From: a virus
Lineage: Duplodnaviria; Heunggongvirae; Uroviricota; Caudoviricetes
IMG/VR virus record: IMGVR_UViG_2529292728_000029
Strand: one strand, 5' to 3'
DNA length: 5,181 nt
This document shows positions 1,924 through 2,967 of this stretch, piece after piece (position 1 is the stretch's first letter; each line of letters opens with the position of its first letter). The position numbers and the translations under genes were made by a program. The notes beneath the pieces were generated by a model that did not search any database, was not told where the DNA came from, and saw nothing but the letters and a program-made list of their open reading frames with translations.

Positions 1924-2256
1924 TTACTTACACGCTTCCCTGCCCACATAGTCAGCGATGGAACCACTTACAATCCCCCCCATTTTGGGATCAGGTTTTG
2001 AATTTTTCATCTGTTCAAGCGTCTCCCCAGAACCAAGATACTTCACTTCATTTGTCATGCAATTATATATTCTCTTCGAATATGCTGTCCCAGATGGGCC
2101 TTCCCTTTTTGTAATGATAGTTTTATATTCACCTTCACGACCAATATCCAGCACTGTATAAGTAGCTTTTGGATCAGAAGGGATTTTTATCTTATAGGGC
2201 GCAGCACAAACTGATGCAGAAGCTAATAAAGCACAAACCAGGATTATATTTCTCAT
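1924..2256 (-). CDS. small secreted (Sec signal peptide) hypothetical protein, 110 aa
   Basis: ATG at 2254-2256 with GGAG SD (plus-strand CTCC at 2264-2267, 7-nt spacer). N-terminus MRNIILVCALLASASVCA/APYK has a basic n-region, hydrophobic core and V-x-A signal-peptidase I site; no lipobox. Mature part is hydrophilic with two Cys (possible disulfide). AT-rich gene. No family recognised. Confidence 0.8.
   Translation of the reverse strand: MRNIILVCALLASASVCAAPYKIKIPSDPKATYTVLDIGREGEYKTIITKREGPSGTAYSKRIYNCMTNEVKYLGSGETLEQMKNSKPDPKMGGIVSGSIADYVGREACK
1975..1981. repeat. C7/G7 homopolymer inside the secreted-protein gene
   Basis: Plus-strand CCCCCCC at 1975-1981 gives minus-strand ATG GGG GGG ATT (K-M-G-G-I), about 18 codons before the stop. 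Confidence 0.9.
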
Positions 2257-2300
2257 AACTATACTCCATGTTATAAATTATCAAAGCTAAGTAAGTAAAA

Positions 2301-2858
2301 CTAATCTGGATCAACAATAAGTTGTGAAACCTTCGCTGCAAGTCTTATATAGCGTTCAGCTTCATTTCTGGTGATTTCAAAATCCAGAAAGTGCGCGGCT
2401 TCATTTCTTAGCGAGCGAAGCCGTTTTAACAGCAAAGCAGCGGAATCTTCAAGTTTTCCTTCTTGAATCAACCAGTCAATGAATAGTTCTGGATTCCGTT
2501 TCGGCTTTAACCCTCCCTGTATAAAACCAGAGCGCCCGGCAGCCTCCTCTACCATCAACCATGACTCCATAATAGCAGCTCTAGGTGAAAAATCAGCAAT
2601 TCTCTCTAATTGTGCGATTTTATTTATATATTCAGAGTTATTATTACCATTGTTAATATTTCTATTCCCAACTGATGCATCTGTTGCTAATACTTCTGCT
2701 GCGGTTAGTCCCGCATTAAACTCAGCTTCAGCTACTCCAATCTTGAATCTACTCAGACGTACTATTAACTCCTTAATATCAACCCCATACTTATTAACAA
2801 ACCACACAAACACCAATGGCCATGCAAGAGCTGAAACCAAATCTGTAAATGATGACAT
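2301..2858 (-). CDS. membrane-anchored protein with C-terminal HEPN-like domain (Rx4H motif RNEAAH); predicted RNase-type toxin/abortive-infection effector, 185 aa
   Basis: ATG at 2856-2858; stop TAG at 2301-2303. Residues 7-21 (LVSALAWPLVFVWFV, nt ~2796-2840) form a hydrophobic helix followed by a K/R-rich stretch (positive-inside, so C-terminus cytoplasmic). Asn-rich low-complexity linker (GNRNINNGNNNS, nt ~2634-2669). Near the C-terminus R151-N-E-A-A-H156 (nt 2391-2408) matches the HEPN Rx4-6H signature with the usual polar residue after Arg. Gene is AT-rich. Confidence 0.8.
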   Translation of the reverse strand: MSSFTDLVSALAWPLVFVWFVNKYGVDIKELIVRLSRFKIGVAEAEFNAGLTAAEVLATDASVGNRNINNGNNNSEYINKIAQLERIADFSPRAAIMESWLMVEEAAGRSGFIQGGLKPKRNPELFIDWLIQEGKLEDSAALLLKRLRSLRNEAAHFLDFEITRNEAERYIRLAAKVSQLIVDPD

Positions 2859-2967
2859 CGGTTATCATCATTCATTATATTTTCAGTTAGTTTACATATT
2901 ATTAAACAGGAACAAAAATGAATTATGCGCCCATCTTCAGATATGTGATGAACGCACAGAAAGAGCA
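2859..2967 (-). promoter_or_regulatory. putative promoter region for the HEPN-like gene (sigma70-type -10 TATAAT)
   Basis: AT-rich spacer between the 353-aa stop and the 185-aa start. Minus-strand TATAAT (plus-strand ATTATA at 2874-2879) lies 15 nt upstream of the ATG, implying a very short or leaderless 5' UTR. No good -35 hexamer at 16-18 nt spacing. No obvious SD. Confidence 0.3.

Follow-up and report, generated by a model that had tools for sequence, protein, structure and literature searches.

An AT-rich insert at a cargo hotspot

The window analysed here, a 5181-bp stretch of viral DNA (IMG/VR record IMGVR_UViG_2529292728_000029), matches Escherichia phage D6 at 97.5% identity across 98% of its length. 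D6 is a P1-like plasmid prophage; Salmonella and E. coli plasmids of ~90 kb, themselves plasmid prophages, show 99% identity to the window. Following the D6 annotation, the genes lie on the minus strand throughout, in the order darA (3′ end), ddrA, ddrB, orf24, orf23 and prt, with pro placed just outside the window, after prt. Between a truncated ddrB and the portal gene prt lies an AT-rich insert that carries orf24 and orf23, which encode proteins of 185 and 110 residues respectively. The insert and its genes comprise the following features:

1893–3002, no strand assigned: AT-rich accessory insert (1110 bp) delimited by breaks in homology; it occupies a cargo hotspot flanked by truncated ddrB and the portal gene
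2301–2858, minus strand: gene (D6 orf24) for the 185-residue DUF4145/HEPN protein, predicted to be membrane-anchored
2796–2852, minus strand: codons of its N-terminal hydrophobic (transmembrane, TM) helix, residues 3–21, with Trp13-Pro14 at 2817–2822
2391–2408, minus strand: codons of its HEPN Rx4H motif, R151-N-E-A-A-H156, read directly from the sequence
1924–2256, minus strand: open reading frame (ORF; D6 orf23) for the 110-residue protein, predicted to be secreted (periplasmic)
~2197–2256, minus strand: signal peptide of the 110-residue protein, with the codons of Cys66 at 2059–2061 and Cys109 at 1930–1932

The initial annotation had described an AT-rich island of two consecutive minus-strand genes, at 1924–2967, inside an operon of ~50% G+C. 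Both genes are present as ORFs of 185 residues (2301–2858) and 110 residues (1924–2256), and the compositional break is seen both in sliding windows and at third codon positions (GC3). The insert has 38.6% G+C, whereas its left and right flanks have 48.4% and 48.9% (the interval 1924–2967 has 38.5%), and the sliding-window value drops from ~0.48–0.52 to 0.33–0.41 across ~2000–3000. GC3 is 0.31–0.32 in both insert genes and 0.47–0.52 in prt, pro, ddrB and ddrA. Within 17 kb of D6 (mean 0.470, standard deviation 0.031) no other 1.1-kb window has a G+C content as low.

The existence of an insert thus stands, while its proposed boundaries do not. Comparison by blastn with plasmids pRHB38-C13_3 (L002), pRHB39-C21_3 (L004) and pTB423 (L003) places the breaks in homology at 1892/1893 and 3002/3003, giving true borders of 1893 and 3002; the former 2967/2968 border is the stop of a ddrB frame shifted by a 1-nt deletion at 3012. 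The right border falls within the final codons of the short ddrB, where a conserved ...GKGL(I/N)F(S/A)MFE is followed by a tail specific to each allele. In pRHB38-C13_3 and pRHB39-C21_3, the two insert-less records examined, ddrB leads straight to the portal gene, as had been anticipated for relatives in which the island is absent. The identical breakpoints enclose 51 unrelated bp in these two plasmids and 2723 unrelated bp in pTB423, and the three cargo alleles have no common sequence. No direct or inverted repeats were found flanking the insert, and a transposon or integron origin was rejected on these grounds.

The alternative allele of pTB423 (L003, 2391–5113) comprises a long DdrB, a 97-residue ORF, an XRE-type gene and a 117-residue ORF, the last two divergently oriented, and is found in 4 plasmids of 120. 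Its DdrB has 1017 residues, with a HEIGHH motif in the extra C-terminal half. P1 has a DdrB of 108.7 kDa, after which comes the Xre homologue hxr (PMC9024508; PMC10695390); this DdrB has a C-terminal metallopeptidase domain (PMC5512222). The pTB423 allele is like this ddrB–hxr arrangement, and it may represent the ancestral state of the site. In these four plasmids an unrelated cargo of 2.7 kb fills the interval bounded by those breakpoints, which makes the ddrB–prt site of D6-type phage-plasmids a cargo hotspot, with three unrelated alleles.

The insert is present in 14 of the 120 plasmids that match the window, always whole (coverage of at least 80%); the 26 non-carriers among the best 40 of these 120 matches cover ~78–79% of the window. 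Some 100 of the 120 are without the insert and would have ddrB adjoining the portal gene. Carriers therefore comprise 14 PLSDB plasmids and D6. In a set of 5426 complete E. coli genomes the insert occurs in nine, every time on plasmids of ~90 kb. Both ORFs are intact and 99–100% identical among carriers; two copies on pSa1423 plasmids (‘92–95%’) are error-rich assemblies with fragmented gene calls and were rejected as a source for the ratio of non-synonymous to synonymous substitution rates (dN/dS).

This deviant composition, together with absence from most relatives, bears out the earlier view of a horizontally acquired moron. In the definition of Juhala and Hendrix (given in PMC3594210), a moron is extra DNA that is missing in relatives and has a G+C content unlike that of its neighbours, both of which apply to the insert; it also has a promoter of its own that works in the repressed prophage, for which the candidate sites of the insert are described below, and a terminator of its own behind it, of which none was found after the insert. 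The insert is accessory cargo of moron type, acquired horizontally and carried by a D6/P1-type phage-plasmid within its late (dar–prt–pro) operon.

The 185-residue DUF4145/HEPN protein and its relatives

The initial annotation had called the two products ‘TM/HEPN-like’ and ‘secreted’, and these calls agree with the hydrophobic helix and R-N-x-A-A-H motif of the first and the signal peptide of the second. It had also matched neither protein to a family that could be named with confidence. For the 185-residue protein this was mistaken, since it is a DUF4145/HEPN protein of an architecture described in 2013: Anantharaman et al. defined, in a purely computational description, membrane-associated DUF4145 HEPN proteins with a ‘WP signature’ in the TM helix, and predicted them to be inner-membrane proteins with cytoplasmic HEPN domains that degrade RNA upon a surface stimulus (PMC3710099). 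The 185-residue protein has the same TM helix with Trp-Pro, the same C-terminal DUF4145/HEPN domain and Rx4H motif, and the same size class. No structural difference from that group is apparent; what is added here is the occurrence as late-operon cargo of a phage-plasmid, and the defence-island, satellite and prophage settings described below. Judged by its sequence, the protein is a member of this large, computationally described WP-TM DUF4145/HEPN family.

Residues 3–21 form the sole 19-residue window above a Kyte–Doolittle value of 1.6 (at 1.63) and are followed by five K/R residues. In an alignment of 31 homologues, W13, P14, R151 and N152 are invariant and H156 is kept in at least 90%; a conserved SPRAA..E..W helix and a conserved EAERY are also seen. 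The protein thereby carries the Rx4-6H catalytic motif of HEPN domains, and an all-alpha fold is predicted for it. At E ≤ 0.1, 29 of the 31 homologues match DUF4145 (best 3.4e-7), 24 match HEPN_Swt1 and 12 match HEPN_RiboL-PSP. A first search for homologues gave 103 clusters; an exhaustive profile search then gave 6973 representatives at a threshold of E ≤ 1e-3 and 570 at one of E ≤ 1e-30. The best 150 representatives listed are nearly all full-length matches to proteins of ~180–210 residues. Among solved structures, nothing beyond a weak HepS motif match was found at the sequence level.

Several single-protein immune systems use a related domain. RAZR (PD-T7-4) is an abortive-infection RNase of the DUF4145-type HEPN class, with essential Arg and His residues, that is activated by phage proteins; its sensor is a Cys4 zinc ribbon at the N-terminus, and the protein assembles around rings of portal size (PMC13017515). 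In the single-gene immune proteins BxaP (PMC10799925) and Ishtar1 (bioRxiv 10.64898/2026.07.06.735840), DUF4145/HEPN is the presumed effector. The likeness between RAZR and the 185-residue protein lies in the DUF4145-type HEPN domain: the Cys4 ribbon is found in RAZR only, whereas the 185-residue protein contains no cysteine, has an N-terminal TM helix and matches no defence profile. A link between the HEPN gene and the nearby portal gene, of the kind suggested by portal sensing in RAZR, is unsupported, the RAZR sensor domain being absent here. BxaP and Ishtar1 differ in another way: DUF4145 is N-terminal in these proteins, its partners are HEAT-like or C-terminal alpha/beta domains, and there is no TM anchor. 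That DUF4145 serves as the effector domain of the tested immune proteins RAZR, BxaP and Ishtar supports, by association, a conflict-related role for the 185-residue protein.

In the mechanism proposed here, the protein would sit in the inner membrane with a very short N-terminus outside, followed by one TM helix, an amphipathic linker and a cytoplasmic HEPN domain. It would act as a latent RNase tethered to the membrane, triggered by perturbation of the envelope or membrane (for example on entry of another phage) or by binding of an invader protein. Once activated, it would cut cellular or viral RNA, so that infection is aborted or the competitor excluded. The TM helix would take the place of the sensor domains of the other single-protein DUF4145 immune RNases. 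By analogy with these proteins, the 185-residue protein is probably a membrane-anchored, stimulus-activated RNase that functions in abortive infection or exclusion.

Homologues with the same architecture (HEPN-TM homologues) are found in a variety of genomic settings. In Salmonella, the gene adjoins an integrase gene in an island that also has TrbL and NikA-like genes. In Raoultella, it follows the primase gene of a small int–alpA–primase element, one variant of which has capsid and protease genes; this element reads as a phage satellite. A Cronobacter island holds the homologue among genes for a TIR-domain protein, AbiTii, a resolvase and ApeA-HEPN, and an island in a metagenome-assembled genome places it by a second DUF4145 protein, Ymh, DUF5677 and RES. 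On viral contigs it lies by AbiTii, by a HepT-like gene, or in a P2/Mu-like tail operon by 8xMP. These settings would support a conflict-related role by association.

Two recurrent neighbours were seen beside HEPN-TM genes. A convergent 306-residue AbiTii-domain gene lies ~200 nt past the HEPN-TM gene in L029 (5782–6702) and L043–L045 (6781–7701), an arrangement that spans a viral contig and the Cronobacter island with TIR and ApeA-HEPN. A conserved 175-residue ORF follows the HEPN-TM gene by ~120 nt in L010 (6704–7231), L026 (5699–6226) and L027 (5702–6226). Found on Serratia chromosomes as well as on two unrelated viral contigs, with 71–77% identity between settings, it matches nothing in Pfam or PADLOC and is not in the window; in the closest HEPN-TM subgroup it may serve as a partner gene.

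There is a small chance that the HEPN protein is a toxin for plasmid–prophage addiction, or that it acts on other mobile elements, such as conjugative plasmids, and not on phages. The element persists in plasmid form, toxin–antitoxin modules commonly include HEPN toxins (PMC3710099), and the DUF4145 protein Ishtar blocks a conjugative plasmid (bioRxiv 10.64898/2026.07.06.735840). HEPN–MNT and other type II modules are, however, recognised by an adjacent cognate antitoxin, and no MNT-type or small antitoxin candidate adjoins the gene here; its neighbours are ddrB upstream and the exported 110-residue protein downstream. The HEPN-TM family is also mostly solo.

The 110-residue protein and its independence from the HEPN gene

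The 110-residue protein begins with an N-terminal hydrophobic, signal-like segment, and orf23 would give rise to a periplasmic protein of ~90 residues with one disulfide and an envelope-level role for the lysogen. The two cysteines, C66 and C109, are invariant in 32 homologues. A few homologues have a lipobox in place of the signal segment, and the family as a whole has no conserved lipobox. An AlphaFold2 model of the protein (predicted local distance difference test score of 91.5, rising to ~98 in the mature part) predicts an antiparallel sheet of four to five strands with two helices.

No family for this protein was found in Pfam, NCBIfam or PADLOC; it corresponds to PHROG 13843, of unknown function. 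A profile search with the family alignment gave 479 clusters, and the 120 of these that were listed are mostly proteins of ~110 residues from Gamma- and Betaproteobacteria, remarkably conserved at 50–68% identity and all with no Pfam domain or informative name. A DUF2511 label carried by homologue P0191 in its source annotation was not reproduced by Pfam. The sequence profile search of the PDB gave only spurious matches, among them 6xi1, which reflects a repeated 19-residue stretch (per-domain E of 19). The closest known proteins are Protein E of H. influenzae (3zh5) and the P. aeruginosa muramidase PseM/TdeM (9m3l; PMC12494544), at 7–10% identity. PseM shares a sheet-to-helix disulfide with the 110-residue protein, which is much shorter, is without the C-terminal helices from which the dimer and active site of PseM are built, and has no conserved lipobox. 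None of the 32 family members matched the adhesin-E or muramidase families of Pfam; matches at E ≤ 0.1 were isolated and unrelated.

In siphophage-type prophages of Serratia, Klebsiella and related bacteria, the homologue lies immediately upstream of the tape-measure gene, where its variable neighbours include HicA, YafO, KilA-N and HNH. In a Xanthomonas P2-like prophage it sits within the tail operon, between gpS and the baseplate genes, and in a Pseudomonas lambdoid prophage directly after a CI-type repressor gene. The tape-measure site is that of HK97 gene 15, the first named moron, which encodes a superinfection-exclusion protein (PMC3594210). The 110-residue gene is read as a moron because its homologues sit at this site; it would be a free-standing moron with an envelope-level role, most likely in superinfection exclusion. 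The insert resembles the HK97 gp15 moron in being extra DNA of deviant G+C at a late-operon site with predicted envelope products. It differs in that neither a promoter above chance level nor a terminator downstream was found for it, and there is no sequence relation to gp15 or YebO.

The initial annotation had put the two genes forward as an undescribed two-gene system. A tblastn search of 40 loci with both proteins found them together in D6-type loci only (L001, L005, L024 and L025). The 22 other HEPN-TM loci have no homologue of the 110-residue protein within 5–6 kb, and the 10 other loci of the 110-residue family have no HEPN-TM homologue within the same distance. Co-occurrence is limited to D6-type elements, and the genes are adjacent in none of the other loci; the description that fits the insert best is therefore one of two independent morons, not of a two-gene system.

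A single two-component system would have the periplasmic protein sense an envelope event and signal via the TM helix to the HEPN RNase, or else serve the latter as regulator or immunity protein. Such a pairing is suggested by adjacency on the same strand, 44 nt apart, by the joint movement of the genes within D6-type elements, and by the pairing of one periplasmic product with another that has a TM helix. It nonetheless appears quite improbable. Besides the absence of the partner from the 22 and 10 other loci, the HEPN protein would expose just ~3–4 residues to the periplasm, and its nearest relatives precede the unrelated 175-residue ORF, a convergent AbiTii gene or nothing conserved.

The same tail-operon spot, between gpS-like and baseplate genes, holds cargo in two P2/Mu-like prophages (L034, 1056–1616; L054, 5001–5336): in the former it is a HEPN-TM homologue beside the 8xMP membrane protein, and in the latter a homologue of the 110-residue protein.

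Expression, flanking backbone and possible roles

The spacers of the insert and the backbone genes on either side of it have the following features:

2859–3002, minus strand: insert-specific 5′ part, with the end codons and stop of ddrB, an AT-rich spacer, hairpins and TATAAT
2264–2267, minus strand: GGAG Shine–Dalgarno sequence of the 110-residue gene, 7 nt before its ATG, within a 44-nt spacer of 22.7% G+C
156–1839, minus strand: backbone flank, portal gene prt (D6 annotation), split by an extra T at 1514 (T9 run)
2968–4358, minus strand: backbone flank, short ddrB-like gene with a ParB-like domain, disrupted by 1-nt deletions at 3012 and 4192

The two genes had been credited with an AT-rich spacer and a TATAAT of their own. 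Both of these are present: the spacer (2859–2982) has 30.6% G+C, and TATAAT lies at 2879–2874 on the minus strand, 16 nt ahead of the ATG of the 185-residue gene. That they amount to a promoter of the insert's own is not supported above chance: no −35 element is paired with the TATAAT, and the window holds no more sigma-70-like sites than shuffled sequence does (7 found, 7.6 expected). The sole consensus promoter-like site of the spacer on the minus strand, ATCACA-16-CATAAT (2949–2922; 9-of-12), lies inside a 12-bp hairpin. This hairpin, at 2924–2958 (minus strand), is located just past the ddrB stop and is followed by a U-rich stretch; the RNA of 2850–2990 folds at −31.5 kcal/mol (z = −2.41), and one of 200 shuffles folds equally well. 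The hairpin could act after ddrB as a leaky terminator or as a site of processing. A further hairpin of 7 bp (2851–2869) covers the start codon of the 185-residue gene, and no Shine–Dalgarno sequence precedes that ATG. Copies of the spacer are all at least 99% identical. No Rfam family of structured RNA was matched at E ≤ 1, and the fold of the stretch between the 110-residue gene's stop and the portal ATG is no better than that of shuffles (z = −0.62).

Late promoters of P1 share a conserved 9-bp inverted repeat (PMC10695390). The 17 kb of D6 hold a single Lpa-box-like palindrome, ACTAAGTTAGT, which stands at the operon head, upstream of lydA; a late promoter within the window itself was rejected, as matches to ACTAAGTTAGT there are at chance level, with 2 mismatches. 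The insert genes are probably expressed via read-through from the upstream late promoter, on into prt and pro; weak transcription of the insert's own is possible.

Expression of this kind bears on whether the two genes serve the lytic cycle of the phage, for example through membrane-proximal degradation of host RNA by one product and help from the periplasm with lysis or envelope remodelling by the other. This we regard as a lesser prospect, though one of some weight. The genes lie in the late operon and are oriented like their neighbours, with capsid-internal anti-restriction genes on one side and the portal gene on the other. Neither a terminator nor a promoter above chance level was found, and the one Lpa-box-like palindrome stands at the operon head; homologues of both genes are also found in late (tail) operons. 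Most related phage-plasmids, however, do not have the insert, and it is therefore dispensable for the lytic cycle. HEPN-TM homologues are found in non-phage settings as well (defence islands, satellites and an island resembling an integrative and conjugative element, ICE), and the 110-residue homologue after a CI-type repressor gene occupies a position that suggests expression in the lysogen. Late-operon morons like HK97 gp15 are, moreover, expressed from prophages (PMC3594210).

Another explanation would make the insert a decaying or functionless passenger whose low G+C is just local variation. Three frameshifts are found in the neighbouring backbone genes of the window, and the C-terminal half of ddrB in the pTB423 allele is likewise AT-rich (39% G+C). 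This explanation is very unlikely indeed, given that both insert ORFs are intact and 99–100% identical among carriers, that the motifs of both families are strongly conserved over phyla-level distances, and that all three frameshifts fall in homopolymer runs outside the insert.

These frameshifts are single-base indels at 1514, 3012 and 4192, called against both D6 and pYU39_89 (T9 for T8, A5 for A6 and A4 for A5). They split prt (1514), alter the C-terminus and stop of ddrB (3012) and split ddrB (4192). They are probably assembly or sequencing errors; they could also be genuine pseudogenisation of the prophage. In D6 and pYU39_89 the ddrB stop comes ~15 nt earlier, near window position 2983, and the short ddrB-like product matches PF18763 (ddrB-ParB) at E 2.8e-23. 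The backbone is mosaic: mismatches to D6 are concentrated at 500–750 and 4500–5100, and 1000–4250 is ~99.5% identical. The two flanks differ in the allele to which they are closest: identity to the window in the left and right flanks is 98.0% and 95.1% for pRHB38-C13_3, and 95.9% and 98.3% for pTB423. A Pro-Gln repeat (PQPQPQ...) lies at ~5081–5123 on the minus strand, in the darA-like C-terminal part; because alignments to D6 and the plasmids break or overlap there, the length of the repeat appears to differ among elements.

Taken together, the insert reads as an accessory cassette of foreign composition at a D6-type recombination hotspot, made up of two unrelated, independently mobile cargo genes: a HEPN protein that would act as a membrane-tethered RNase and a periplasmic protein that would act at the envelope. 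We hold this with somewhat better than even confidence, and a defence or exclusion role for either gene is plausible from its context. Several points weigh against it. The DUF4145 (PF13643) score of the 185-residue protein is 19.9 bits against a cut-off of 23.1 (E 8e-4), and its TM call depends on a single hydrophobic window barely over the threshold. Neither protein matches a PADLOC family at E ≤ 1, so a defence role rests on genomic context. PADLOC-DB 2.0 holds models for PD-T7-4. Some homologues have housekeeping genes around them; in Serratia, for example, the HEPN-TM homologue lies between nrdG and an ArsP_1-family (PF03773) gene, a non-mobile setting. The functions proposed for both families derive from sequence and context. 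The late-operon position, with no convincing promoter or terminator of the insert's own (no terminator-like site was found on the minus strand of the whole window), would suit a lytic-cycle role just as well as expression in the lysogen. Finally, a DefenseFinder survey found D6-type elements to be almost without defence systems (bioRxiv 10.1101/2025.09.12.675607).

Clinical E. coli and Salmonella commonly carry D6/P1-type phage-plasmids, and present tools report hardly any defence genes for the D6 group. What emerges here is a cargo hotspot with precise limits, whose three unrelated alleles share identical breakpoints, together with two compact, uncharacterised gene families that are carried on many kinds of mobile element. 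The novelty is modest, since the sequence is already part of a published, annotated phage genome and the HEPN architecture has already been described. Should neither gene protect the host, the locus would be ordinary mosaic cargo in a late operon. A wider reading is offered tentatively, at less than even confidence. The WP-TM DUF4145 proteins (at least 570 clusters at 50% identity) may be widespread single-gene immune RNases with a membrane helix as sensor, which would fire on envelope or membrane perturbation as phage DNA enters; their genes would travel on phage-plasmids, satellites, ICEs and prophages. The 110-residue family would then provide periplasmic superinfection-exclusion factors that fill HK97 gp15-type sites. 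Should the 185-residue protein indeed act as an RNase in abortive infection, membrane sensing would join the inputs used by DUF4145 immune proteins (RAZR, BxaP and Ishtar), and this membrane-anchored HEPN protein would be a very small and readily testable model.

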